In this document: piece by piece, positions 1,733 through 58,776 of the stretch
Position numbering within the stretch: the first letter of the stretch is position 1
Layout of the letters: each line of letters begins with the position of its first letter
Source of the DNA: a virus
Taxonomy: Duplodnaviria > Heunggongvirae > Uroviricota > Caudoviricetes
IMG/VR virus record: IMGVR_UViG_3300009500_000011
Span: 104,585 to 168,584 of that record
Reading direction: 5' to 3' (one strand)
DNA length: 64,000 nucleotides
The notes under the pieces: model-generated
What the model was told of the DNA's origin: nothing
The model's database searches: none
Seen by the model: the letters and a program-made list of their open reading frames with translations, nothing else
Translations under genes and position numbers: made by a program

Positions 1733-4195
1733 GTGATTGTTGCTACAAAATCTATCGAAGATGTTTTAAAAGTTACCGCTGAAGAATTTTTCAAGAATGA
1801 AAAGATGGCAGTTGATGTATTTAATAGTAAATATGCATTGCAAAAAAAAGATGGAAGTTTAGAAACTCCAGGCGAATGTTTTTATAGAGTAGCAAAGTAT
1901 ATTGCATCTGCTGAAATTGATGATGGATTTACAAAAGAACAGGCAGATGATTTAGCTTCACAATGGTTCTGGGCAATGTGGAATAGAGACTTTATTCCAG
2001 GCGGAAGAATTATGTATGGTGCAGGTAATCCTGATAATGTTTCATTAGTGAATTGTACTACTGTGTCTTTAGGACCTAATGCAGAATTTCCAAATCAAGA
2101 TGATGATAATATTGAAGGTATTTATCGTTCTGCTTATGAAATGGCCCGTGTGCTTTCTAAAGGTGAAGGTGTTGGTATTGATGTAACTGCTTTACGTCCT
2201 ATAAATTCGCCTGTTAATAATGCTGCGAAAACAACTTCTGGTGCAGTTTCTTGGATGAGTTTATATGATTATACTACTGGAACTATTGCACAAAATGGTC
2301 GCCGTGGTGCATTATTAATTTCAATGAAAATTACTCATCCAGAAGTTTTTGAATTTATTAAAGTTAAATCTGATTTAAATAAAATTCAAAATGCTAATAT
2401 TTCTCTTCAAATTAATGATGCATTTATGAAGGCATATAAGAATGATGAAGAGTGGGAATTTAAATGGTCTTCTCTTGATGGGAAAAAAGTTATAACTTCA
2501 ACAGCCCCAGCAAGACAAATAATGAAGGCTATTGCAGAACATAGCGCAATGTTTGCAGAACCGGGTTTGCAATTTTCAGATACTGCGGCCAGGTATTCTA
2601 ATTCTGATGCTGTGGGTTATCCTGTAATAAGTACGAATGCTTGCTCTGAACAATTTTTAACACATTTGGATTCATGTGTTCTTGGTCATGCTAATTGGGC
2701 TACATTACCATTAAACTTAGAAGAAGCAGAAGTTGAAGCAGAAAAACGAGGATACTATATTTCTTGGTTTTTAGATAATGTTGTGACTAAGCAATTAGTT
2801 GATAAACGTTCTCCACTTCCAGGTTCAGCAGAAAAATCAAGATTATTGCGTCGAATTGGTCAAGGTTTCACAGGGTTAGCAGATTATTTATCTAAGATAG
2901 GCATTTCATATGATAGTGATGCAGCAATACAAGTTGCATCTAGATTATCAAAAGCAATGACCAAAGGCGCTTATAGACGTTCTATGGATGCTGGTAAAGA
3001 ACGTGGAAGTTACTTGGCTTTTAATAAAACAAAACTTTTAAATTCAAAATTTATTCAAAATATGATTGAAGATGGAGTTATTCCTGAAAATTTTGAACAC
3101 ATGAGAAATGTTTGTAATACTACGGTTGCACCTGTTGGTACAGGTAATCTTATGGTGCAAGGATGGGCCAATGGAACTGAACCAGGTATTGGTTTTGTTT
3201 ATTGGCGTAGAACGCGCGTTTCCGGTGAATATGTATGGTACTTTGTTGTTAACGAATTTGTTTTTGAATTGCTTAAAGATTATCCAGAATTAGTTGATGA
3301 AATAAAGAACAAAGTTGCAGAAATTAATGCCACTCCAATTGGCCAAAAACGTTTTGATATGGAAGATTCGGTATTTAATTTAATTGACGGAAAAATTAAT
3401 TTAAATATTCACAAATTCTCTCATTTAGTTGACCCTATAAAAAAAGCCGATTTGATGGGCGCTGTTCAAAGATATATTGATTCTGCTTTATCAGTTACTT
3501 ATAACATGCCTTTTTCAACAACAGTTGAACAAATCGAACAATTATATGTACGTTGTTGGGAAAATGGATTAAAAGGTGTTGCAATTTATCGTGAAGACCC
3601 TCAAAATAGAGAGCCAATCTTTATGTTTCAACGTCCAGAATCATATAATTATCGTCAAGTTCCAATTTCTCCTGTCATAAAGTATATGTTATCAGAAGAA
3701 AGAGTTGTTGACAAACGTCCACCTGAATTAACAGGTAAAACACAAGTTGTAAATGCAGAAGGTCATAAATTTTATTTTACATATAATTTTAATGAAGTTG
3801 GAGATTTGTATGAAGTCTTTTGTACAACGAACAGTCGTGAGCCCAAGATTTCAACAGAAGCTGCTCAAAATGTATTGGTCAATCTTTTAGAAGAATGTAA
3901 TGTTCCGAAAGATTTTATTAATGACCAATTAGAGAAATCAAGTCACCAAGGTTCTGCACAAAAAATCACTAGATTGGTTTCATTGGCTTTACGTCACTAC
4001 ATTAGTGTTCCTTTAATCGTACTTGCTCTTGATGAACTTGAAGTTCCTGTTTCTTCATATATTTATCATTTACGCAGAGGGCTTTCGCAATTTTTACCAA
4101 GACAGGTAGAAAAATGTGCTAGTTGTGGAGAAGATTCAATGATTATTGAGAGTGGATGTGAACATTGCGATAATTGCGGCGCTAGTAAGTGTTAA
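1733..4195 (+). CDS. ribonucleotide reductase, single-chain (probably class II, B12-dependent), with C-terminal Cys4 zinc ribbon
   Basis: GTG start with AAGGA RBS; NxCxE active-site motif (STNACSEQF); 820 aa; no small-subunit gene nearby; C-terminal CASCG...CEHCDNCG. Confidence 0.8.
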   Translation: MIVATKSIEDVLKVTAEEFFKNEKMAVDVFNSKYALQKKDGSLETPGECFYRVAKYIASAEIDDGFTKEQADDLASQWFWAMWNRDFIPGGRIMYGAGNPDNVSLVNCTTVSLGPNAEFPNQDDDNIEGIYRSAYEMARVLSKGEGVGIDVTALRPINSPVNNAAKTTSGAVSWMSLYDYTTGTIAQNGRRGALLISMKITHPEVFEFIKVKSDLNKIQNANISLQINDAFMKAYKNDEEWEFKWSSLDGKKVITSTAPARQIMKAIAEHSAMFAEPGLQFSDTAARYSNSDAVGYPVISTNACSEQFLTHLDSCVLGHANWATLPLNLEEAEVEAEKRGYYISWFLDNVVTKQLVDKRSPLPGSAEKSRLLRRIGQGFTGLADYLSKIGISYDSDAAIQVASRLSKAMTKGAYRRSMDAGKERGSYLAFNKTKLLNSKFIQNMIEDGVIPENFEHMRNVCNTTVAPVGTGNLMVQGWANGTEPGIGFVYWRRTRVSGEYVWYFVVNEFVFELLKDYPELVDEIKNKVAEINATPIGQKRFDMEDSVFNLIDGKINLNIHKFSHLVDPIKKADLMGAVQRYIDSALSVTYNMPFSTTVEQIEQLYVRCWENGLKGVAIYREDPQNREPIFMFQRPESYNYRQVPISPVIKYMLSEERVVDKRPPELTGKTQVVNAEGHKFYFTYNFNEVGDLYEVFCTTNSREPKISTEAAQNVLVNLLEECNVPKDFINDQLEKSSHQGSAQKITRLVSLALRHYISVPLIVLALDELEVPVSSYIYHLRRGLSQFLPRQVEKCASCGEDSMIIESGCEHCDNCGASKC

Positions 4196-11146: not shown

Positions 11147-11659
11147 ATGGATTTTTTAGTTGGCGATATATTAGTTTTAAAACAAGATGCTCTTGACCTT
11201 GAAGATAAAACTGGCAAAACAATTTTATATCCCGCAGGTTCCGAAGCTGAAATTATACAAATAAAAAATGAAAATGAATATCATCTGCAATTTCCAGATG
11301 CCAAAATATGGCCTCATGACTTGGCAACTTTATTGATTTTCTTTAATCGTAAAAAAGATGGTAAAAATGTTTATACTCGCCAGGTTTCAGAGTATGGTAC
11401 GCCACCAAAAGAGCTTGCTTTTTATATACCTAGAGAAGTTGATTGGCGTAAAAACTATAGGTATACTGTCAGAATTGAAGCAGAAGATTGTGGCTTTAAA
11501 AAATTGATTTGTCCTAGTTGTTTCAATGACCTGGGAGAAAATGGCGAACCAGATAATGAAGGTTTGCAAAAATGTCAAAAATGTGGTACAATGGTTCTCC
11601 CGATAGACCCATTAACATTCAAGTATCCACATGATGACGGAAATGAACACACAACTTAA
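11147..11659 (+). CDS. hypothetical protein with C-terminal Cys4 zinc ribbon
   Basis: CPSCF...CQKCG. Confidence 0.5.
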   Translation: MDFLVGDILVLKQDALDLEDKTGKTILYPAGSEAEIIQIKNENEYHLQFPDAKIWPHDLATLLIFFNRKKDGKNVYTRQVSEYGTPPKELAFYIPREVDWRKNYRYTVRIEAEDCGFKKLICPSCFNDLGENGEPDNEGLQKCQKCGTMVLPIDPLTFKYPHDDGNEHTT

Positions 11660-12935
11660 GAGTAATTCTCAAAAATTCTTAGAAGCAGCAAATTGGGCTC
11701 TTGTAAAAGAACGCTTTGGCGAAGATACAGGAGTTAATATTCGTCGCGCTTCTATAGATAATGTGCAAAATATTACGCTTTTCAATGGTTCAAAAGGTTT
11801 ACTTTTTGATGGATATTCGTTTCCTGAACAAGAACATCTTAAAGGCTTGATTGTTCACGAAGTATTAGGAAGCGCACATTCGGTTATAGCGGCATGTTTT
11901 CCTAAATTCTATAACTATGGCGAACCTGCTGAAAAACAAAAGCATCTTGAATACTTAAATGACGATTCTATGAGTGTGTTATTTGCTAAGAAAGAGGATG
12001 GAGTAAATATTCGTCCTTATTTCAATGCTGCAACAAATAGAGTTGAATTTGCTACGCGCGGAACCTTGCTTGTTGTTTCTGATATTGAAGAAACGTCTAA
12101 TCTTGATTATGGCGCAATGGCTCGTTCAATTGCAGAAGAAAAATATCCAATTCTTTTGGATGAGGAATTTGTAAAGAAATACTCTTGTATTTTTGAAATG
12201 ATTCATCCTGATTCCAAAATTCTTACGGATTATGGACAAAGAAAAGACCTTATTCTTCTGTCAGTATTTGATTTAGAAAATAACTGCTATGAATTTTCGC
12301 GTGAATGGGTAGCATCTTGGGCAAATATAATTGGGTTAAATTATGTTGAATATTGGTTTGACCAATATGCGCCTGTTTCTGAATTTTCTTCTTTAGTTGA
12401 AAAACTACTTAAAAAATGGAACGAAACGGATGTAGAAGGTTCTGTTGTTATATTTGTAAACTCTGAAGCAGAACCTGTATATCGTCTTAAAGTTAAAAAT
12501 GCTTATTATTTACAAATGCTTCGACTTGCAAAATTTTGCACTTTGAAGAATTTAGTCTCAATCATGGAAGAAAATAACTTTTCAAATTGGGAACAACTTC
12601 GTGCATATTTGTACGAAAGCCCTTCAATGAATGAAGAATTAGAAATGGCATATAAGGCTCATTTTGATGTATATGAAAATTGGTTAGCAAATCTTGAAAT
12701 CGAAAAACAAAATGTTTTAAAAGAATATCAAGAATTACCTTCTTTCGAATTACAAAAAGATTTTGCTTTATACATCTTAAAAGATGGCGCTTATCCATAC
12801 AATCCGCTATTCTTTGCTATTCGCAAATGGTTAGCAGAAGCCAAAAATCCTAATTTAGAACAATTCTTTGAAGAAAATGTTAAAGCAACAGTAATGTTGA
12901 AGAAAATCTATCCACTATCGGAAGTAGAGGAATAA
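11631..12935 (+). CDS. ATP-dependent RNA ligase, Rnl1 (T4 RnlA)-like
   Basis: nucleotidyltransferase motif I FAKKEDGVNIR (KxDG) at a position comparable to T4 Rnl1; 434 aa. Confidence 0.7.
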   Translation: MMTEMNTQLKSNSQKFLEAANWALVKERFGEDTGVNIRRASIDNVQNITLFNGSKGLLFDGYSFPEQEHLKGLIVHEVLGSAHSVIAACFPKFYNYGEPAEKQKHLEYLNDDSMSVLFAKKEDGVNIRPYFNAATNRVEFATRGTLLVVSDIEETSNLDYGAMARSIAEEKYPILLDEEFVKKYSCIFEMIHPDSKILTDYGQRKDLILLSVFDLENNCYEFSREWVASWANIIGLNYVEYWFDQYAPVSEFSSLVEKLLKKWNETDVEGSVVIFVNSEAEPVYRLKVKNAYYLQMLRLAKFCTLKNLVSIMEENNFSNWEQLRAYLYESPSMNEELEMAYKAHFDVYENWLANLEIEKQNVLKEYQELPSFELQKDFALYILKDGAYPYNPLFFAIRKWLAEAKNPNLEQFFEENVKATVMLKKIYPLSEVEE

Positions 12936-12936
12936 C

Positions 12937-13443
12937 ATGGGTTTATTTGATTATGTAATTTGTGATTATCCTTTACCTGATTCATATAAAGGGAGTATTA
13001 AGTTTACAACTAAAGACTTAAATTCTTTTATGAATACTTTTACTATTACTGAATCAGGTCAACTTTTAGAACACAAATTTCATTTTGAAGAAGTTCCTGA
13101 AGAAGAACGTCCTAAATTTAATACACCCGAATGGAATTCTGATAACGAAACAATTAAAACTTGGACACGCTTAATGGGTTCAAAGATTCAAGTATTTGAT
13201 GGCTTGGAACCCTACCTTTACACAGGTGCTGTTTGTTTTTACGGTTCAAATTTAGATAGTTGTAATTCGGATGGATATTATACTACAGAAAATGATGAAC
13301 CTTATGAATACAAAGAATACATTGCTTTGTTTAAAAATGGTATGTTAATTAACATTATTGAAAATAATGAAAAAGACAATGAATTTTTTACTCCAGAATG
13401 TTTTTTAACACAAAAACAGTATAAAGAAAAATATAATGAATGA
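12937..13443 (+). CDS. hypothetical protein
   Basis: ORF track. Confidence 0.5.
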   Translation: MGLFDYVICDYPLPDSYKGSIKFTTKDLNSFMNTFTITESGQLLEHKFHFEEVPEEERPKFNTPEWNSDNETIKTWTRLMGSKIQVFDGLEPYLYTGAVCFYGSNLDSCNSDGYYTTENDEPYEYKEYIALFKNGMLINIIENNEKDNEFFTPECFLTQKQYKEKYNE

Positions 13444-14197
13444 CTCGCTTGGCGACCGAATGAAAACATATTATGAAGATGTGACGCGGCATTACTTGCC
13501 TCGGCGAACTCATACAATTATTCGGTTAGATGGAAAATCTTTTCATACGTATACAAAAAAATTAGCAAGACCATTTGATGCTGGTTTGATTGAAGATATG
13601 CAAAAAACCACAATTCGACTTTGTGAGAATATTCAGGGCGTTGTTCTTGGTTATACGCAATCTGATGAAATATCTCTTGTTTTATGTGATTATAAAGAAA
13701 AAGAAACTGAATCCTTTTTTAAAGGTAATATTCAAAAAATTTGTTCAGTATCTGCAAGTATGGCTACTGCATTCTTCAATGCTTTTAGACAAGCCCGTAA
13801 TTTTGAAGGTGGTCCAGCATTTTTTGATGCTAGAGTATTTACTATTCCAGAAAAGGTAGAAGTTCTTAATTATCTTATTTGGAGACAAAAAGATGCAACA
13901 AGAAATTCTATTCAAATGGCCGCACAATCTGTTTATTCTCATAAAGAACTTAATAAAAAGAAGTGGTCTGATTTAAATGAAATGCTTTTTCAGAAAGGTA
14001 TTAATTTTAATGATTATTCTTCTTCTGAAAAACGTGGTTCTTTAATTGTGAAAGAATATTTTGAAGGGGAAGCCTATGATAAGCGTAAGCAAGAAAATGT
14101 TATAGTTACTCGGTCGCGTTGGATTGTAGAACCTGAAACACCTCTTTTTACTGCTGAAGAAAATAGAGATTTATTTGAAAGGTATTTATATAAATAA
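13436..14197 (+). CDS. Thg1-like protein (tRNA-His guanylyltransferase family / TLP, 3'-5' nucleotide addition)
   Basis: N-terminal MKTYYEDVTR...IIRLDGKSFHTYTKK...KPFD matches the conserved Thg1 N-terminus (FE...R.DG..FH.F). Confidence 0.75.
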   Translation: MNDSLGDRMKTYYEDVTRHYLPRRTHTIIRLDGKSFHTYTKKLARPFDAGLIEDMQKTTIRLCENIQGVVLGYTQSDEISLVLCDYKEKETESFFKGNIQKICSVSASMATAFFNAFRQARNFEGGPAFFDARVFTIPEKVEVLNYLIWRQKDATRNSIQMAAQSVYSHKELNKKKWSDLNEMLFQKGINFNDYSSSEKRGSLIVKEYFEGEAYDKRKQENVIVTRSRWIVEPETPLFTAEENRDLFERYLYK

Positions 14198-14349: not shown

Positions 14350-15051
14350 ATGTATATGCCAAAAAAACAATCTTCTCAAACACCTAGAAGAATTCCAACC
14401 ATAAGAACGGTACAATTTGAAGCCCAAACAATAAATCAAGAGAAGTTTGTAAAAAATATAGAAAGAAATGTTGTTTCATTCGGAATAGGTATACCAGGTT
14501 CAGGAAAAACGTATTTAGCATTAGCAACTGCTCTTAAAGCATTAGTTGAACAAAAATGTGAACGAGTTGTAATAACTAGACCAATGGTTGAAGCAGGTCC
14601 TTCTATCGGATTCCAACCTGGAAATGAAGAAGAAAAACTTGGAGTATATTTAAAACATATTTATGATATGATATATAAATTACTACCAAAAGTTTTGGCA
14701 GATGATTTGCTTGATTCAGGAAAAATATCAATTGGTGCTATTACATTTATGAGAGGAATGAATTTTGAAAACTCATATGTAATAATAGATGAAGCCGAAA
14801 ACTTAGACAAAAAATCATTTTATTTGTTATTAACAAGAATTTGTGAAGGGTCTAAAATGATTTTTTGTGGTGATACTGGCCAGGTTGATTTAAAAAATCC
14901 TAGTGAAAGCGGATTAAATGATGCAGTTTTAAAATTTCAAGGTAAAGAAAATTTTAGTGTAACTGAATTTACTATTGAAGATTGTCGCAGAAGTAAAGTT
15001 GTTATGGAAGTTATTAAAGCATATTTCCCTAACTCAACCAAGACAAAGTAA
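14350..15051 (+). CDS. phoH: PhoH-like ATPase
   Basis: GIGIPGSGKTYLALA Walker A; IIDEAEN Walker B; overall PhoH layout. Confidence 0.85.
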   Translation: MYMPKKQSSQTPRRIPTIRTVQFEAQTINQEKFVKNIERNVVSFGIGIPGSGKTYLALATALKALVEQKCERVVITRPMVEAGPSIGFQPGNEEEKLGVYLKHIYDMIYKLLPKVLADDLLDSGKISIGAITFMRGMNFENSYVIIDEAENLDKKSFYLLLTRICEGSKMIFCGDTGQVDLKNPSESGLNDAVLKFQGKENFSVTEFTIEDCRRSKVVMEVIKAYFPNSTKTK

Positions 15052-17137: not shown

Positions 17138-17224
17138 GGAAGTATCGCATAGCGGCGATTGCATCTGACTGTAAATCAGACGCGCGAAAGCGCCTCGGAG
17201 GTTCGAGTCCTTCTACTTCCACCA
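17138..17224 (+). tRNA. tRNA-Tyr (anticodon GTA), long variable arm, CCA encoded
   Basis: acceptor ggaagta/tacttcc; loop ctGTAaa; variable arm cgcgcgaaagcgcctc. Confidence 0.75.
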
Positions 17225-17237
17225 TTTTAATAATATT

Positions 17238-17308
17238 TTGAGTTGCGCTAGAATAAAGTTACTTCGTCTGTAAAACGAGGAATCCGGGTTCGAGTCCCGG
17301 TCGGAATC
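17238..17308 (+). ncRNA. tRNA-like / Y-RNA-like element: 5' motif GAGTTGCGCTAGAATAAAGTTACTTC, then anticodon-like hairpin (loop ctGTAaa) and canonical T-arm, but no pairable acceptor stem
   Basis: 5' 26 nt match the triplicated motif upstream of the Ro60 gene (45037, 45278, 45367); T-arm ccgggttcgagtcccgg. Confidence 0.45.
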
Positions 17309-18943: not shown

Positions 18944-18948
18944 ATCAT

Positions 18949-19020
18949 TGGAGTGGTAGCATAGAGGTAATGTACCGTTTTATCGCGAGCGGGATGAAGG
19001 TTCGAGTCCTTCCCCTCCAG
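18949..19020 (+). tRNA. tRNA-like gene with canonical T-arm and acceptor but unresolved anticodon arm (possible pseudo-tRNA or atypical tRNA)
   Basis: acceptor tggagtg/ccctcca (one mismatch); T-arm gaaggttcgagtccttc; no clean 5-bp/7-nt anticodon hairpin found by eye. Confidence 0.35.
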
Positions 19021-19040
19021 TTCTTTTTTAAAAAGAAATC

Positions 19041-23091: not shown

Positions 23092-23174
23092 GCTGGGGTG
23101 GCTCAGAGGCGACAGCGCCAGTTTTGTAAACTGGTATACAAACAACGTGGGTTCGAGTCCCACCCCCAGCCCCA
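23092..23174 (+). tRNA. tRNA-Thr (anticodon TGT) with unusual unpaired 12-nt variable loop, CCA encoded
   Basis: acceptor gctgggg/ccccagc; anticodon stem ccagt/actgg; loop ttTGTaa; variable tatacaaacaac. Confidence 0.6.
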
Positions 23175-24938: not shown

Positions 24939-24967
24939 TTGACAAAATATTTGAAATAGAGTAATAT
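24939..24967 (+). promoter_or_regulatory. sigma70-like promoter TTGACA-17-TAATAT
   Basis: ttgaca aaatatttgaaatagag taatat; precedes a small Cys-rich ORF and two tRNAs. Confidence 0.55.
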
Positions 24968-24973
24968 GTAAAT

Positions 24974-25093
24974 ATGAATACTAATCATAGAGTCTGCCGT
25001 TGCGACGGTAAACCATATCCAAAAAGTCTAAGATGCAAGTGTAATTGCCAATGCGAAGGTTGTTCAGGAGCCCGCAAGGCAAGAAGCAAATAA
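24974..25093 (+). CDS. 39-aa Cys-rich peptide MNTNHRVCRCDGKPYPKSLRCKCNCQCEGCSGARKARSK
   Basis: ATG 7-8 nt after the -10 (leaderless or near-leaderless); 9 Cys. Confidence 0.35.
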   Translation: MNTNHRVCRCDGKPYPKSLRCKCNCQCEGCSGARKARSK

Positions 25094-25103
25094 ACTGAAT
25101 ATT

Positions 25104-25188
25104 GGGACTTTGGCAGAGCGGTTATGCAACGGACTCTTAATCCGTGAGGGAAACCTCTATGTGGGTTCGACCCCCACAGGTCCCACCA
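25104..25188 (+). tRNA. class II (long variable arm, Ser-like D-arm) tRNA with anticodon CTT as read, CCA encoded
   Basis: acceptor gggactt/aggtccc; D-loop gagcggttat; perfect anticodon stem acgga/tccgt; loop ctCTTaa; variable arm gagggaaacctctat. Confidence 0.55.
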
Positions 25189-25197
25189 AATAACTAT

Positions 25198-25274
25198 GGG
25201 ATAGTAGGAGAATTGGCATATCTACCACGTTTAGACCGTGGGTTCTGTGGGTTCAAGTCCCACCTATCCTACCA
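25198..25274 (+). tRNA. tRNA with anticodon TAG (Leu-type) but class I body (5-nt variable loop), CCA encoded
   Basis: acceptor gggatag/ctatcct; anticodon stem ccacg/cgtgg; loop ttTAGac. Confidence 0.55.
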
Positions 25275-25282
25275 AATATTTA

Positions 25283-25306
25283 AAAGACCTGATATCAGGT
25301 CTTTTA
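25283..25306 (+). terminator. intrinsic terminator
   Basis: aaagacctgatatcaggtctttt. Confidence 0.7.
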
Positions 25307-25329
25307 TCATTCAAAAAGTTTAATTTAAT

Positions 25330-25473
25330 ATGGCAAGAAAAAACATAGATGATATTTATAACGAAAACAATTATGTTCAGAAAAATTATACAGGCAGCGG
25401 TTTTGCCCTTGGTTTAGCCTTGGCGGCGACATGTTTGATAGCGTTGCACCTTCTGGGAGTTAAATTGATTTAA
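25330..25473 (+). CDS. 47-aa small membrane protein (below track cutoff)
   Basis: hydrophobic C-terminus GFALGLALAATCLIALHLLGV. Confidence 0.4.
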   Translation: MARKNIDDIYNENNYVQKNYTGSGFALGLALAATCLIALHLLGVKLI

Positions 25474-25587
25474 TATGGTAAGATTAAAATTAAAATGGAA
25501 AATAAAAAAAGATGGATATGGTTTAAAATCATCTTGGAAAAAGAAAAACAAACATAAAAAATCTTTTATTATCTGGAAATAAAAATA

Positions 25588-26253
25588 ATGCCTTTAAAAA
25601 TCGTGTGTATTTCTGATACTCACAATTCATTAAATCAACTTGAACTTAATGGATTAAAAATGCCAGAAGCAGATGTTCTTATACATGCTGGTGATTTAAC
25701 ATTTAAAGGCCAACTTCCAGAAATTTCAAAAGCAAATTATCATTTAGGGAAAATTAAACATAAGTATAAACATGTGGTTTTTGTTCCAGGAAATCATGAT
25801 TTTCTTTTTCAAAAAGATGAAGCAATTGCAAGGGCTGTATTGTCTAATGCAACCGTATTAATTGACCAACCTTTAGAAATTGAAGGTTATAAATTTTACG
25901 GTAGTCCTTGGCAACCCTGGTATCAAGATTGGGCATTTAATTTTAAAAAATATTCAGCAGGAGGAAAAGAACAGTCAATTCGTATTTGGGGAGCTATTCC
26001 TGAAGAGACTGATATTTTAATTACTCATGTCCCGCCATATATGATGATGGATAAAACTGAATATGGTGAAAATATTGGTGATGCTTGGCTTGCTAAACGT
26101 TTGAAAGAACTTCCTAATCTTAAACTTCATGTTTTTGGGCATGTTCATGAAAGATACGGTAAAGTAGAAGCAAAAATTACCTTTGTTAATGCAGCTTCTA
26201 TGAACCGTAGATATAGCATTGTGAATCCACCAATTGTTATAGATTTGCCTTAA
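25588..26253 (+). CDS. calcineurin-like metallophosphoesterase
   Basis: CISDTH; GDLTFKG; GNHD; HVPP; GHVH motif series. Confidence 0.75.
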   Translation: MPLKIVCISDTHNSLNQLELNGLKMPEADVLIHAGDLTFKGQLPEISKANYHLGKIKHKYKHVVFVPGNHDFLFQKDEAIARAVLSNATVLIDQPLEIEGYKFYGSPWQPWYQDWAFNFKKYSAGGKEQSIRIWGAIPEETDILITHVPPYMMMDKTEYGENIGDAWLAKRLKELPNLKLHVFGHVHERYGKVEAKITFVNAASMNRRYSIVNPPIVIDLP

Positions 26254-26262
26254 AATAAGAAT

Positions 26263-26742
26263 ATGGATAACAAAGATTTGGTAGTTCATTGTAAGATAAA
26301 ACCTTACGACGTTTATATTGGGCGAAGCAAAGACCCTAAAAAAGGTAAGTGGGGGAATCCTTATTCTCATGAAGAAGGAACCCTTGCCGAATATAAAGTG
26401 GCAACCCGAGAAGAAGCGGTAGAATGTTTTCGTAAATATTTATTAAAAAATGTCGATTTAATGAAACAAATTTTAACCTTAAAAGGTAAAGTTTTGGGAT
26501 GCTGGTGTAAGCCTAAATCTTGTCATGGAGATATTATTGTAGAATTTATTAATAAAATTGACAATGGTGAATCCTTGTGCGATAATTGTGAAGAGGAAGA
26601 TTGTTATTATTGCAATCTTGGTTGTCCTTGGTGTGGACATGCACACAGTTTAGATGGTTCATGTAAAAATTGTTGGTTAGAAGCATGTCAAATAAATGAT
26701 GAAGAAATGCTTCTAAGAATAAAAGATTTAATACCTAAATAA
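26263..26742 (+). CDS. DUF4326-like protein with C-terminal Cys-rich extension
   Basis: KWGNPY ... LGCWCKPKSCHGDII pattern. Confidence 0.45.
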   Translation: MDNKDLVVHCKIKPYDVYIGRSKDPKKGKWGNPYSHEEGTLAEYKVATREEAVECFRKYLLKNVDLMKQILTLKGKVLGCWCKPKSCHGDIIVEFINKIDNGESLCDNCEEEDCYYCNLGCPWCGHAHSLDGSCKNCWLEACQINDEEMLLRIKDLIPK

Positions 26743-26746
26743 AATT

Positions 26747-26833
26747 GGCCGAATGGCGGAATTGGTAGACGCGGCAGACTCAAAATCTGTTGTCCGAAAG
26801 GGCGTGTGGGTTCAAGTCCCACTTTGGCCACCA
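26747..26833 (+). tRNA. tRNA-Leu (anticodon CAA), class II, CCA encoded
   Basis: D-arm tggcggaattggtagacgcg identical to bacterial Leu; loop ctCAAaa; long variable arm. Confidence 0.75.
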
Positions 26834-26862
26834 CAAATTGAATTCTTTAAGAAGAGGAAAAA

Positions 26863-27309
26863 GTGATTAACTTTATTAAAAAGATTTTTAAACTAGGTAG
26901 TACCCAACCGAAGAATATTTCGTCAAATTCAAAACCATCGACAGCGAGTAATTCAATTAATTACAATGTTCATCCCATTGTGATTGAGCGACCTCTTCCG
27001 ACTCCTAAGCCGGTGTATTACGATGATACATCTTCGCAATTAACGAATATGTTGTTAATGGAAGAGATTATTGATTCAAGTTATCAACCTACCACAACGG
27101 TAATTGTAGAACCACCAGCACCTGTTGATAATTACAATAACTATTCGGCACCAGAACCTTCGCCGTCTTCGTCGCCAAGTCCATCATATGATAGCGGTTC
27201 ATCATATTCAGATAGTAGTTATTCGTCGTCTTCTTCATGGTCTTCTTCGTCATATGATAGCGGTAGTAGTAGTTCGTCTTCATCATATGATAGTGGTGGT
27301 GGTTGGTAA
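26863..27309 (+). CDS. Ser/Tyr-rich low-complexity (disordered) protein, GTG start
   Basis: RBS AAGAGGAAAAAGTG; C-terminal SSYDSGSS repeats. Confidence 0.5.
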   Translation: MINFIKKIFKLGSTQPKNISSNSKPSTASNSINYNVHPIVIERPLPTPKPVYYDDTSSQLTNMLLMEEIIDSSYQPTTTVIVEPPAPVDNYNNYSAPEPSPSSSPSPSYDSGSSYSDSSYSSSSSWSSSSYDSGSSSSSSSYDSGGGW

Positions 27310-27320
27310 ATAATAATAAA

Positions 27321-27403
27321 GGGCAAGTGGTGGAACTGGTATACACGTATGTCTAAGAAGCATATGCGAAAGCATGTGGGTTCGAGTCCCACCTTGCCCA
27401 CCA
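27321..27403 (+). tRNA. class II Leu-like tRNA, anticodon read as AAG (A34), CCA encoded
   Basis: acceptor gggcaag/cttgccc; Leu-type D-arm gtggtggaactggtatacac; anticodon stem tatgt/gcata; loop ctAAGaa. Confidence 0.5.
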
Positions 27404-27889: not shown

Positions 27890-27979
27890 GGGGATATGGT
27901 GAAATTGGTCAGACACAACAGGCTTAAACCCTGTCGGGCGTTATATCCCATGTCGGTTCGAATCCGACTATCCCTACCA
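27890..27979 (+). tRNA. tRNA-Leu (anticodon TAA), class II, CCA encoded
   Basis: acceptor ggggata/tatccct; stem acagg/cctgt; loop ctTAAac; long variable arm. Confidence 0.7.
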
Positions 27980-45366: not shown

Positions 45367-45440
45367 AATTGCGTTAATTACAGATACTTCTTGTATATTG
45401 GTTCGAGTCCATTAAGTGTAGTCGGTACACAACTGTAGTT
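45367..45440 (+). repeat. motif copy R3 AATTGCGTTAATTACAGATACTTCTTG followed by T-arm mimic and 3' complement (aattacag / ctgtagtt)
   Basis: 5' aattacag pairs with 3' ctgtagtt (8 bp, one G-U) enclosing ggttcgagtcc. Confidence 0.5.
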
Positions 45441-45465
45441 GTTCCATTCGTTTAAATTTTATTTA

Positions 45466-45499
45466 ATCCTTGGGAATATATTTCTCAAGGATTTTTTTG
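45466..45499 (+). terminator. intrinsic terminator
   Basis: atccttgggaatatatttctcaaggattttttt. Confidence 0.65.
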
Positions 45500-45519
45500 T
45501 TGTCATAAAGGAAAAAAGA

Positions 45520-47205
45520 ATGAAATACAATACTAAAACAGTAAATGCTGGTCCAGGAACAAAAATGATAAATCTTGCAGGCGGAGAAGCTTTTAAAGTT
45601 GATAATCGTACTGCATTATATTTAACTTCTGCAACTTCTTTAGGTGGCGGTCAAGGAAATAAATATTATGTTTCTGCAAATCAAGAATACAAAAATATTC
45701 TTGAACTAATTGAAAAGGTTTCCGCTCAAGACCCAGAATTTATTTTCCAATTGGCTGCATATTGTCGTCAAGATTTATACCTTCGTAGTATTCCAACGGT
45801 ATTATTTATCGAAGGTATTCGTGCAATGCATAAGCAAAAAAAGGCCAATGCACCATATCCAGTAGATGCATCTAAGTATGCAAATGCTATTTTTGGTCGT
45901 GCTGATGAAATTGTTGAAGCAGTTGCATATTGGCTTGGAGTTGAAGGCCATCACAAATTGCCTTCCCCTCTTCGTAAATCTTTGACCATTGCTTTAAATT
46001 CATTTGATGAATACCGCTTGCTTAAATATAATCAAGAAGATAAGCAAGTTACATTTAAAGATATTGTTCGTCTTGTGCATCCAGAACCAAAAACTGATGT
46101 GCAAAGTGCAATTTTCAAATACTTCATCAAGGATGAAATCAGTCCAGAATTAATGCCAAAGGCAACTGCCCGCAAGGCTTTGCTTTCACGTACTCAATTT
46201 GATGAAGAAGCACAACGCTTGATGAGAGATTCATCTGCTACTTGGGAAACTGTAATTGCTAAATTCGGTTCGACTAAAGAAATTTGGGAAGCAGTTATTC
46301 CAAATATGGGATACATGGCTTTATTACGTAATCTTAATAATTTTCTTAAAAAAGAAGTAGATTTAGATTTAGTAATTCCTCGCCTTGTGAATCCGCAAGA
46401 AATTCGTAAAAGCAAGCAATTGCCTTTCCGTTTTTACACAGCAATGAAACAACTTGGTGTAGAAGATAACAATAAGAATTCTACGATGACATATTATGGA
46501 TATTCCGATTCAGTAAAAACAGCATTTGAAAAATGGCGTAATGTAAATTCTAGCGATGGAATTTCTCGTTTACGTAATGCTCTTGGTGTTGCTATGAATA
46601 TTGCAGTAGAAAATGTTCCTCACCTTTCAGGTCGTACCGTTGTTGCGGCAGACCTTTCTGGTTCTATGAGTCAACCTCTTAATAACAAATCAAATGTAAC
46701 TTATCGTGAAATCGCTTGTATTATGGCTGGTATTGCTGGTTCAATAGCACCAGATAATGTAATTTGTGGATTTGGTTGTTCATTTGCTGTTGCTAAAAAA
46801 GGCAAAGATATTCTTGAAACTGCAAATAATATTGATAAATTAAATGTTGGAATGTCAACGGATGCATGGCGTATTCTTGATTACTTGCTTACAAACAAAA
46901 TTTTTGTAGATAGAGTCATGTATTTTACAGATACACAATGTTATAATTCATATGGGGGCGCAAATTTAAACGAACTTTGGAAAAAATACAAAGTTCTTTG
47001 CCAATCAACTGGTAAAAAAGTTCCTGTTCTTTATGAAGTAAATCTTGCAGGTGGTAATACATCTAGTTTTAATTCTGAACAAAGAGTTGCTACCATTGGT
47101 GGATGGTCTGAAAGAATTTTTGATTTAATTACTACTTATGAAACTGACCCTCGTCAAGCAATAAGTAAAATTAAAGAAAAATATTCAGATTTAGTATCTG
47201 TTTAA
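45520..47205 (+). CDS. rsr: Ro60 (Rsr) ortholog: TROVE module + C-terminal vWA domain
   Basis: GGGQGNKYYVS, FQLAAYCRQD, ALLRNLNNF, LPFRFYTAMKQL and vWA MIDAS VVAADLSGSMSQ align with conserved Ro60 blocks; ATG 45520 with RBS AAAGGAAAAAAGAATG (track start 45439 is upstream read-through). Confidence 0.8.
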   Translation: MKYNTKTVNAGPGTKMINLAGGEAFKVDNRTALYLTSATSLGGGQGNKYYVSANQEYKNILELIEKVSAQDPEFIFQLAAYCRQDLYLRSIPTVLFIEGIRAMHKQKKANAPYPVDASKYANAIFGRADEIVEAVAYWLGVEGHHKLPSPLRKSLTIALNSFDEYRLLKYNQEDKQVTFKDIVRLVHPEPKTDVQSAIFKYFIKDEISPELMPKATARKALLSRTQFDEEAQRLMRDSSATWETVIAKFGSTKEIWEAVIPNMGYMALLRNLNNFLKKEVDLDLVIPRLVNPQEIRKSKQLPFRFYTAMKQLGVEDNNKNSTMTYYGYSDSVKTAFEKWRNVNSSDGISRLRNALGVAMNIAVENVPHLSGRTVVAADLSGSMSQPLNNKSNVTYREIACIMAGIAGSIAPDNVICGFGCSFAVAKKGKDILETANNIDKLNVGMSTDAWRILDYLLTNKIFVDRVMYFTDTQCYNSYGGANLNELWKKYKVLCQSTGKKVPVLYEVNLAGGNTSSFNSEQRVATIGGWSERIFDLITTYETDPRQAISKIKEKYSDLVSV

Positions 47206-58130: not shown

Positions 58131-58213
58131 CGGCGGGTTCCCGTAGCGGCGAACGGTCTGCTTTTACATGGCAGCATACCACATCGTGGGTTCGAGTCCC
58201 ACCCTGCCGACCA
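58131..58213 (+). tRNA. tRNA-Val (anticodon TAC) with unpaired 11-nt variable loop, CCA encoded
   Basis: acceptor cggcggg/cctgccg; stem ctgct/ggcag; loop ttTACat; variable cataccacatc. Confidence 0.6.
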
Positions 58214-58685: not shown

Positions 58686-58776
58686 CTCGGTGTGGTGTAA
58701 CTGGATAGCACAAAACGCTACGAACGTTTAGGGAGCCGCAAGGCCATTGGGGGTTCGAATCCCTCCATCGAGGCCA
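58686..58776 (+). tRNA. tRNA-Arg (anticodon ACG) carrying a 19-nt variable arm, CCA encoded
   Basis: Arg-type D-loop aactggatag; perfect stem aaacg/cgttt; loop ctACGaa; variable agggagccgcaaggccatt. Confidence 0.6.

Follow-up and report, generated by a model that had tools for sequence, protein, structure and literature searches.

Lysine tRNAs with a variable arm and leucine tRNAs without one in a metagenomic phage and other mobile tRNA sets

Introduction

Several phages carry tRNAs that resist the tRNA-cutting nucleases of host defence systems, among them the Lys, Thr and Asn tRNAs of T5 against AriB of PARIS, phage Thr tRNA against P2-OLD, and anticodon-loop variants of mycobacteriophages (PMC12409363, PMC12445682, PMC10264068). 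Here we describe three tRNA genes on a 64-kb stretch (the window; positions 104,585 to 168,584) of the 168.6-kb metagenomic contig IMGVR_UViG_3300009500_000011 of a Caudoviricetes phage: a tRNA-Lys(CUU) with a long variable arm (a), a tRNA-Leu(UAG) without one (b), and a tRNA-Leu(AAG) with A34 (c). Statements on gene content refer to this window. In function, the closest fit for these tRNAs would be the nuclease-resistant phage tRNAs reported from 2023 onward, while their structural solution appears to be different and so far undescribed. Shared with that group are the isoacceptors concerned, phage copies of those that nucleases cut (Lys, Thr(UGU), and Asn), and differences from host tRNAs that leave decoding intact and could prevent cleavage. 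The described tRNAs differ by point changes in the anticodon stem or loop or by a shortened stem, whereas here a whole arm is gained or lost.

Class II architecture with a class I anticodon is known from the nematode nev-tRNAs and other eukaryotic tRNAs with a variable arm (PMC3333845). The nev-tRNAs have Leu identity and are leucylated, whereas in the phage tRNAs discriminator and acceptor features belong to the amino acid of the anticodon, and codon sense is unchanged. Allo-tRNAs and selC*-type tRNAs also combine a long arm with diverse non-Ser anticodons, and some lie in phage tRNA clusters (PMC5389517), but they have 8/4 or 9/3 acceptor/T stems and Ser or Ala identity, as opposed to the 7/5 stems and the absence of G73 in the family of (a). 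Leucylation without an arm, through A73 and elements of the D and T loops, has been described for engineered minimal E. coli tRNALeu and for animal mitochondrial tRNALeu (PMC9976931). Those are laboratory constructs or organellar, whereas (b) is natural, belongs to bacterial translation, and comes from a family with G1.U72 in 14 of 24 members. The tRNA array units of bacteria, plasmids, and phages are likewise dense, mobile, and redundant clusters with a proposed anti-defence role (PMC5966550, PMC12803027); the array papers classify them by isotype order, and a change of structural class is not mentioned there.

Results

Structure and identity of the three tRNAs

The window is AT-rich (GC content about 32%), has every gene on the + strand, and contains 32 tRNA genes. 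A DNA-level search among cultured phages gave no match to it. Genes identical to those of the window phage turn up in JGI sample 3300009701 and run SRR5829579. Two other assemblies, L012 and L013, contain (a) and (b) without a single base difference, and (c) is identical in L013, L012 stopping short of it. The tRNA genes were called with ARAGORN and, independently of it, with the Rfam tRNA covariance model RF00005 (cut-off 29 bits). The three genes and the window tRNAs used for comparison are as follows (nt, nucleotides).

25104..25188, + strand, tRNA-Lys(CUU) (a), 85 nt, class II-like (ARAGORN; Rfam 55.7 bits)
25198..25274, + strand, tRNA-Leu(UAG) (b), 77 nt, without variable arm (ARAGORN; Rfam 54.3 bits)
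27321..27403, + strand, tRNA-Leu(AAG) (c), 83 nt, normal Leu body with A34 (ARAGORN; Rfam 56.7 bits)
26747..26833, + strand, tRNA-Leu(CAA), 87 nt, normal class II Leu serving as internal reference; T arm identical to that of (b)
27890..27979, + strand, tRNA-Leu(UAA), 90 nt, normal class II Leu; G1.U72, as in (b)
17138..17224, + strand, tRNA-Tyr(GUA), 87 nt, window tRNA closest to (a) in D arm and variable-arm geometry; 63% identity

Rfam placed the anticodons of all three tRNAs in the same registers as ARAGORN (E about 1e-11). A first-pass annotation, made by eye, had already located (a) with its 15-nt stem-loop arm, perfect stem, and ctCTTaa loop, and (b) with its ttTAGac loop and 5-nt variable loop; both programs agreed, and an alternative loop register, which that annotation had named as grounds for abandoning its reading, was not seen. 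Its inventory of the 64-kb window also held: three Thr, two Asn(GUU), two Gln(UUG), and two Ala(UGC) tRNAs, with no Lys besides (a) and no Trp. The textbook class II families of bacteria are Leu, Ser, and Tyr, plus selenocysteine. Class II architecture, taken as a variable stem-loop of >10 nt with a D stem of 3 base pairs (bp), was found in (a), (c), and a tRNA-Arg(ACG) of the window, and was absent from (b) with its 5-nt loop.

The acceptor stem of (a) has 7 bp and its T stem 5 bp, with A73, G1:C72, and an encoded CCA. Its D stem has 3 bp (GCA/UGC), G13.A22 being unpaired, and its anticodon stem is a perfect 5 bp that closes the 7-nt loop cuCUUaa with U33. The 15-nt variable region folds into a GAGG/CCUC stem of 4 bp with a GAAA loop, followed by UAU as a tail. 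Lysyl-tRNA synthetase (LysRS) reads U35, U36, and A73 (PMC9976931), and (a) presents the corresponding set, C34-U35-U36 with A73. Serine identity in bacteria goes with G73 and an arm of 5–7 bp that leaves about one unpaired nt at its 3' base, and (a) departs from it in A73, a 4-bp stem, and a 3-nt tail. Leucine identity of the E. coli type is also lacking, as A73 is present but position 15 is G and there is no A20a (D loop GAGCGGUUA). With tRNA-Tyr, (a) shares A73, U35, G1:C72, and the geometry of the arm, but it has C34 and U36 where Tyr has G34 and A36. On these features (a) is almost certainly a lysine tRNA reading AAG, lysylation itself being predicted.

In (b), the anticodon loop is uuUAGac (7 nt), the variable loop GUUCU (5 nt), the first pair G1.U72, and the discriminator A73. 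The D loop is of the Leu type (GAAUUGGCAUA; G13-A14-A15-U-U-G18-G19-C-A20a-U-A21), and the variable loop ends in U48. E. coli leucyl-tRNA synthetase (LeuRS) needs A73, A15:U48, G18G19, and A20a, and neither the anticodon nor the long arm (PMC9976931); the full E. coli-type set, A73, A14, A15:U48, G18G19, and A20a, is present in (b). The gene is 80.5% identical over its full length to the 77-nt tRNA-Leu(UAG) of Yersinia phage P778, and its design matches the 77-nt tRNA-Leu(UAA) of EscoHU1. Judged by these determinants, (b) is almost certainly a leucine tRNA for CUA that lost its arm and kept every LeuRS determinant, with predicted leucylation; it probably reads CUG too.

The loop of (c) is cuAAGaa and its variable arm has 10–11 nt. 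A nearest-neighbour isotype classifier, which reached 62.5% leave-one-out accuracy, was noisy for the class I tRNAs of this phage, and was used at group level, assigned (c) to Leu in 8/9 cases each for upper body and D region. Most BLAST matches listed for (c) fell under annotated tRNA-Leu genes, and none under other isotypes. By these results (c) is a leucine tRNA of the ordinary kind, and its AAG anticodon is a perfect match for CUU; A34 stands in a Leu body, and I34 through TadA deamination would be a prediction only. The first-pass annotation was right about the Leu body and the ctAAGaa loop but not about A34 being unusual: three further Leu(AAG) tRNAs occur in the phage census described below, and tRNALeu(AAG/IAG) is known in Lactobacillales (PMC13249217), where it is read as IAG; A34 in a Leu tRNA is common to both, (c) being phage-encoded. 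Such an A34 Leu tRNA has been linked to a shift of Leu codons toward CUU, CUC, and CUA (PMC13249217, PMC8266599). Besides Arg(ACG), other A34 anticodons were seen in phage sets (L014, L015, L032, L075, and others), namely Thr(AGU), Gly(ACC), Leu(AAG), Ser(AGA), Cys(ACA), and Tyr(AUA).

Codon sense

The ribonucleotide reductase of the window was aligned with 119 homologues. Its AAG codons fell in Lys-dominated or generally hydrophilic columns, with Lys in 87 and 85 of the 119 at conserved sites, while CUU columns reached Leu in 119/119 and CGU columns Arg in 119/119. In a second test, 16 window genes were compared with their orthologues in two related phages (30–77% identity). AAG aligned to Lys at a fraction of 0.45 against 0.47 for AAA; alignment to Leu was 0.64 for CUA, 0.65 for UUA, 0.59 for CUU, and 0.62 for UUG; and alignment to Arg was 0.77 for CGU against 0.72 for AGA. 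No excess of Tyr, Ser, or Leu at AAG appeared in these 16 genes. AAG, CUA, CUU, and CGU therefore keep their standard sense in this phage.

The 14,651 codons counted include 179 AAG, 72 CUA, and 355 CUU. Among Leu codons CUU ranks second in use (355/1301), and it makes up 79% of CUN codons, a dominance that fits a Leu tRNA with an AAG anticodon and Watson–Crick pairing. The anticodons CUU, UAG, and AAG, all in 7-nt loops with U33, read the sense codons AAG, CUA/CUG, and CUU and are not those of suppressors. Nor is (a) nev-tRNA-like, as Leu and Ser determinants are absent and its AAG columns are Lys-like. The suggestion in the first-pass annotation that Ser or Leu might be misincorporated or recoded at AAG finds no support in the codon alignments or in the determinants, which fit the anticodon. 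For Shigella phage Sf14, a published analysis found 13 of 26 tRNAs with an anticodon at odds with the tRNAscan-SE isotype models (PMC12482277), a case that makes disagreement of this kind weak evidence in phages.

Recurrence in phages and cellular genomes

IMG/VR was searched with the pattern GACTCTTAATC-N17-27-GGTTCGANNCC, which joins the Lys(CUU) loop to the T loop over a long gap. The pattern was found in 99 stretches, many on contigs of 200–500 kb, and ARAGORN called 80 long-arm Lys(CUU) genes in the matches, 69 of them distinct. The IMG/VR stretches so selected (L024–L103) form our census, whose counts are conditional on the presence of long-arm Lys(CUU) and ignore kinship; a control set comprised 80 loci selected for class I Lys(CUU) from at least 120 pattern matches. 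The closest census match to (a) was the long-arm Lys(CUU) of L091 (84% identity), as opposed to at most 63% for the window tRNAs. An in-phage duplication with anticodon shift from a Leu-like ancestor, prompted by the shared T arm GTGGGTTCGAGTCCCAC, was ruled out by these identities, and an exchange of anticodon arms between the neighbours (a) and (b) by the 80 other loci, where short Leu never follows long Lys(CUU). The usual neighbour of the long-arm Lys(CUU) gene is Lys(UUU), directly upstream of 24/80; adjacency of this kind is usual for isoacceptors and agrees with a Lys identity of the long-arm tRNA.

Other isoacceptors in the census loci were long-armed as well: Lys(UUU) in 27/72, Ile(UAU) in 5/10, Thr(UGU) in 12/30, and Asn in 8/38, most of the remaining class I isoacceptors showing 0–16%. 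Arm-less Leu tRNAs were represented by 24 distinct census sequences. In the control loci, arm-less Leu made up 10/38 and long-armed Lys(UUU) 4/26.

Cultured phages carry the same architectures. BLAST against them reached an 87-nt tRNA-Lys(CUU) in Caulobacter phage CcrBL9, and Xanthomonas phage XacN1 has an 89-nt Lys(CUU) beside a normal 77-nt Lys(UUU). In Erwinia phage pEp_SNUABM_01 the Asn(GUU) and Trp(CCA) tRNAs measure 86 and 87 nt, and an annotated tRNA-Lys also has 87 nt. Its Asn tRNA shows about 90% identity to (a) in the variable arm and T arm, and in the arm stem a C:G pair is replaced by G:C in a compensatory manner. Among cultured phages, 518 records contain long-arm Asn(GUU) tRNAs of 83–86 nt; T5-like Epseptimavirus is represented there, as are T4-like phages of Klebsiella and Enterobacter. 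The Asn tRNA has 83 nt in Epseptimavirus versus 78 nt in T5. Arm-less Leu tRNAs of 77 nt occur in the T5-like coliphage EscoHU1 (UAA) and in Yersinia phage P778 (UAG and UAA). The presence of these architectures in more than 100 unrelated phages, cultured ones included, is hard to reconcile with a misincorporating tRNA.

The pattern was also run on one cellular genome per species (185,579 species). It matched in 47 places, 32 of which are real long-arm Lys(CUU) genes, and 24 of these 32 lie in arrays of 5–35 tRNAs per 8 kb that also hold short Leu, long Asn, and long Ile(UAU) tRNAs. The class change is a hallmark of mobile tRNA sets and not of ordinary chromosomal tRNA genes, and (a) belongs to a widespread lineage of Lys tRNAs of phages and tRNA arrays with a hairpin arm and an accompanying 3-bp D stem. 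GenBank annotations reveal the phenomenon only through gene length, tRNA-Lys or tRNA-Asn genes being unusually long or tRNA-Leu genes short. In the full-text literature searched, whose coverage was limited, arm gain in phage Lys, Asn, or Thr tRNAs and arm loss in phage Leu tRNAs were undescribed.

Arm structure and identity determinants across the family

RNAalifold on a MAFFT alignment of the 69 long-arm Lys tRNAs recovered the cloverleaf with covariation and not the variable arm, whose length differs between members; the arm was therefore analysed by a loop-anchored hairpin search against shuffles. An arm stem of at least 3 bp was present in 91% of the long-arm Lys family versus 52% of shuffles, and one of at least 4 bp in 53% versus 14%. 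Arm loops were GNRA in 49/64 (GAAA in 35), and every Watson–Crick pair type was found at each position of the arm stem. The long arm is a genuine covarying hairpin of 3–4 bp. Its 3' tail has 3–4 nt in 54/64; in the same phages the tail has 1 nt in Ser, 2 nt in Leu, and 3–4 nt in Tyr tRNAs, so that the added arm is Tyr-like in geometry. The phage Ser tRNAs have G73 in 44/52, stems of 5–6 bp, and that 1-nt tail.

In the nearest-neighbour comparison, the D region was called Ser-like alike for long-arm Lys, Asn, and Thr tRNAs, as a class II-type D arm, and acceptor stems were, at group level, most often nearest to their own isotype. Among the 69 long Lys(CUU) tRNAs, position 73 is A in 47, U in 22, and G in none; positions 14–15 are AG in 28 and AA in 11, and position 48 is C in 52/69, so that 15:48 is G:C in most members, where Leu has A15:U48. 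Of the long Asn tRNAs, 7/8 carry G73 and 6/8 U1:A72, and long Thr tRNAs have U73 in 12/15. In the short Leu family, A73 is found in 23/24, A14A15 in 21/24, and U48 in 21/24. The wobble pair G1.U72 was seen in 14/24 arm-less phage Leu tRNAs versus 12/50 long Leu tRNAs of the census. Acceptor/T stems are 7/5 in (a) and in the aligned family, not the 8/4 or 9/3 of allo-tRNAs, and CCA is encoded in (a) and in 46/80 census copies of long Lys(CUU). As far as sequence can tell, the elements that synthetases read follow the anticodon, so that the charging-relevant body agrees with it. The mismatch of body and anticodon put forward in the first-pass annotation is thus real as a matter of structure and does not extend to the body that would matter for charging.

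Further window tRNAs with unusual variable regions

Three more window tRNAs, not flagged in the first-pass annotation, have an odd variable region.

58686..58776, + strand, tRNA-Arg(ACG), 91 nt, 19-nt variable arm (ARAGORN; Rfam 49.4 bits)
23092..23174, + strand, tRNA-Thr(UGU), 83 nt, unstructured A/C-rich variable loop of 11–12 nt (ARAGORN)
58131..58213, + strand, tRNA-Val(UAC), 83 nt, unstructured variable loop of 11 nt (ARAGORN)

In the Arg(ACG) tRNA the Arg determinants A20, C35, G36, and G73 are intact; outside the window a long arm is rare in this isoacceptor (1/19 in the census). The other two represent a second recurrent design, an unstructured A/C-rich variable loop of 11–12 nt such as UAUACAAACAAC or CAUACCACAUC, with the D arm CCGU-AGYGGCGA-ACGG or GCUC-AGUGGCGA-CAGC and the T arm GUGGGUUCGAGUCCCAC. 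This long-loop design is common to Lys(UUU), Lys(CUU), and Thr(UGU) tRNAs of other phages (L024, L042, L051, L069, L075, L087, and L099) and the window Val(UAC); the window Thr(UGU) shares its design with the Thr(UGU) tRNAs of L024 and L087 (IMG/VR). The core of Val(UAC), comprising D arm, variable loop, and T arm, matches the long-loop Lys(UUU) of other phages, and the whole tRNA is 77% identical to the Lys(UUU) of L099, higher than to any census Val.

Two tRNA-like genes were also observed. A 67-nt truncated tRNA-Tyr(GUA)-like gene at 17242–17308, 18 nt after the full tRNA-Tyr and below the Rfam threshold, may be a pseudogene or a tRNA-like RNA. Another at 18948–19021 has an 8-nt anticodon loop, to which ARAGORN assigned the four-base anticodon AUCG (Rfam 35.2 bits), and could be a frameshifting tRNA or a decayed one. 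The phage also encodes a Ro60/TROVE protein with a vWA domain (45439–47205), for which the odd tRNA-like genes could be candidate Y-RNA-like partners.

Neighbouring features

Two sequence elements flank the pair (a)–(b), and two genes of the window encode proteins with RNA-repair domains.

24939..24967, + strand, promoter-like TTGACA-17-TAATAT, 137 nt upstream of (a); weak, the site count being the same as in shuffled sequence
25281..25306, no strand assigned, 11-bp palindromic hairpin directly after (b)
11631..12935, + strand, T4 Rnl1-type RNA ligase (Pfam RNA_lig_T4_1, E 1.3e-16)
13436..14197, + strand, Thg1-like protein of the family for 3'-5' nucleotide addition and tRNA 5'-end repair (Pfam Thg1, E 3.8e-29)

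Between the promoter-like site and (a) lies an open reading frame (ORF) for a Cys-rich protein of 39 amino acids (aa) (MNTNHRVCRCDGKPYPKSLRCKCNCQCEGCSGARKARSK, 24974–25093). The hairpin may act as a terminator of the (a)–(b) pair or as a site of its processing. A metallophosphatase gene adjoins (b) and has only distant or bacterial homologues. A 148-aa ORF at 26863–27309, between Leu(CAA) and Leu(AAG), has a low-complexity tail rich in Ser, Tyr, Asp, and Gly with SSSYDSGSSS-type repeats.

The first tRNA block is closely preceded by a cluster of RNA-repair-like character to which the ligase and the Thg1-like gene belong (11631–14197 and 14350–15051), in the order Rnl1-type ligase, 168-aa protein, Thg1-like protein, and PhoH. 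The Rnl1 family contains the enzyme by which T4 reseals cut tRNA-Lys. Together, the Rnl1-type ligase and the Thg1-like enzyme suggest tRNA damage as a pressure on this phage; with the Ro60/TROVE protein added, they would equip it to cope with RNA damage. The lineage further encodes translation-related and anti-defence-like proteins, namely an IF3 homologue, ClpP, an eIF-1A/IF1-like small protein, Acb5, and NADAR (L020, 2662–3910; L125, a part of the window near 61 kb, 351–1383 and 2685–3197). A strain with a 98%-identical ribonucleotide reductase carries a LAGLIDADG intein in it (1137 aa; L020, 10001–13414), and the window copy (820 aa; 1733–4195) is without it. Orthologous tRNA regions were sought through relatives of this reductase, whose contigs stop before any tRNA.

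Discussion

We read these genes as working elongator tRNAs of standard meaning whose changed shape was selected to escape host tRNA-cutting nucleases with charging retained, and we give this reading a probability of about 0.6. Its escape step possibly holds, by a circumstantial chain. The relevant nucleases would be the Toprim enzymes AriB and OLD and the HEPN enzyme PrrC. PrrC cuts tRNA-Lys. LysRS would read U35, U36, and A73, and bacterial LeuRS A73 and the D/T elbow; neither would use the variable region, which we infer to be free to change without altering amino-acid identity. The changed shape would then let the phage tRNAs evade defence nucleases and still be charged. In this model, the arm would leave the core 3–4 nt from the AriB cut site 40|41, beside the D arm. 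The AriB targets and cut site are known (PMC12409363, PMC12445682), AriB also contacts the D loop and other distal parts (PMC12409363), and P2-OLD prefers Thr(UGU) (PMC12445682). In the census loci, arm gain was found in 48/153 tRNAs of the four isoacceptors counted as AriB targets versus 51/503 other class I tRNAs (odds ratio 4.05, p = 1.9e-9); it is enriched in Lys(UUU), Thr(UGU), and Asn(GUU), which the nucleases of PARIS and OLD cut. In (a), the motif U36-A-A-U-C known from AriB substrates is kept, so that any resistance to such an enzyme must come by other means.

Several points weigh against escape. In the literature searched, no report on aminoacylation, expression, or cleavage of long-arm Lys or arm-less phage Leu tRNAs was found. 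The PARIS/T5 experiments were dropped as direct support because the Lys, Asn, and Thr tRNAs of T5 are class I, and the arm was thus not tested in them. The enrichment is conditional on long-arm Lys(CUU) loci and ignores kinship. U73, in place of the canonical A73, has a larger share in long-arm Lys tRNAs (CUU 22/69, UUU 6/27) than in the class I Lys tRNAs of the same loci (2/56). Class II synthetases approach the tRNA from the variable-loop side, and the arm could accordingly hinder LysRS. Partial charging of (a) by tyrosyl-tRNA synthetase may also occur, given the Tyr-like geometry and the shared A73, G1:C72, and U35. Finally, the loss of the arm in Leu has no protective explanation of comparable quality; a Schlafen-type nuclease specific for class II tRNAs was considered as its cause and rejected, the bacterial Schlafen paper reporting no class II preference.

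The main rival is neutral architectural drift, in which a variable region ignored by synthetases gains or loses a hairpin that spreads by descent and recombination with no adaptive value. It assumes that LysRS, LeuRS, and the asparaginyl- and threonyl-tRNA synthetases are indifferent to the variable region, and several observations agree with it: determinants outside that region are kept, LeuRS has no need for the arm (PMC9976931), long and short forms stand side by side in the same loci, and a core of D arm, variable loop, and T arm is common to Lys, Thr, and Val tRNAs, which suggests modular spread. Drift alone would leave unexplained the maintained covarying stem, the strong GNRA preference, the fixed tail of 3–4 nt, and a D arm that changes in coordination with the arm. 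It also sits poorly with the concentration of the arm in a few isoacceptors and its near-absence from the ordinary tRNA genes of chromosomes (185,579 species gave 32 loci, most of them in arrays). We consider it unlikely, though well worth keeping in view.

Mischarging or recoding would have (a) insert Tyr (likeliest on geometry), Leu, or Ser at AAG, or (b) be charged with an amino acid other than Leu. Precedents exist in the leucylated nev-tRNAs with Gly and Ile anticodons (PMC3333845) and in allo-tRNAs that insert Ser at sense codons (PMC5389517), and (a) does combine a class II D arm and a Tyr-type variable arm with A73, G1:C72, and U35. This is nevertheless very improbable, as AAG aligns to Lys just like AAA with no excess of Tyr, Leu, or Ser; G73 occurs in 0/69 family members; (a) has G15 in place of the Leu A15 and C34 and U36 unlike the Tyr anticodon; the family occurs in cultured phages, often adjoining Lys(UUU); and (b) holds the full Leu determinant set. 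We attach equally little weight to the tRNAs being decoys or sponges that do not translate and instead occupy host tRNA nucleases or other tRNA-binding defence proteins. Overexpressed viral tRNAs have been suggested as possible competitive inhibitors of AriB (PMC12409363), and (a) keeps the motif of its substrates, but the features for charging and EF-Tu use are conserved (7/5 stems, CCA in 46/80 and in (a), discriminator, and T loop), and the anticodons match codons in use (AAG 179, CUA 72, and CUU 355). Of what the first-pass annotation had proposed on host anticodon nucleases, the link itself is the most plausible part, while we infer nuclease-resistant working replacements in place of decoys. 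Least probable is an arm recognised by a phage enzyme for tRNA modification, repair, or charging, which would set apart a private tRNA pool. Although an RNA ligase, a Thg1-like enzyme, a Ro60/TROVE protein, and an RNase T-like exonuclease are all encoded in the window, it yielded neither a synthetase nor a modification enzyme; the arm occurs in very different phage families, making a shared enzyme unlikely, and its shape is conserved where its sequence is not.

Selection for nuclease escape with charging retained might apply beyond this phage. We advance only tentatively, and with the odds somewhat against it, that class change is a general and so far undescribed anti-defence strategy of phages and mobile arrays, in which hunted isoacceptors gain an arm or loop and Leu sheds its arm. 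The gainers would be Lys, Thr(UGU), Asn, Ile(UAU), and here Arg(ACG), with either a Tyr-type hairpin or an extended A/C-rich loop. Nucleases that sense shape at the junction of anticodon stem, D loop, and variable region would no longer fit, and synthetases that use the anticodon and N73, or the elbow and N73, would still charge.

The tRNAs of the window are ordinary members of a widespread and seemingly unremarked class of phage tRNAs. The tRNAs of phages and tRNA arrays break the class II rule routinely and in both directions, apparently without a change of the genetic code. Where identity is inferred from the body type of a tRNA, by software or by readers, recoding is over-called in phage genomes. 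If the arm protects, it would be an anti-defence device of a new class, and orthogonal tRNAs could be made nuclease-proof on the same design principle.

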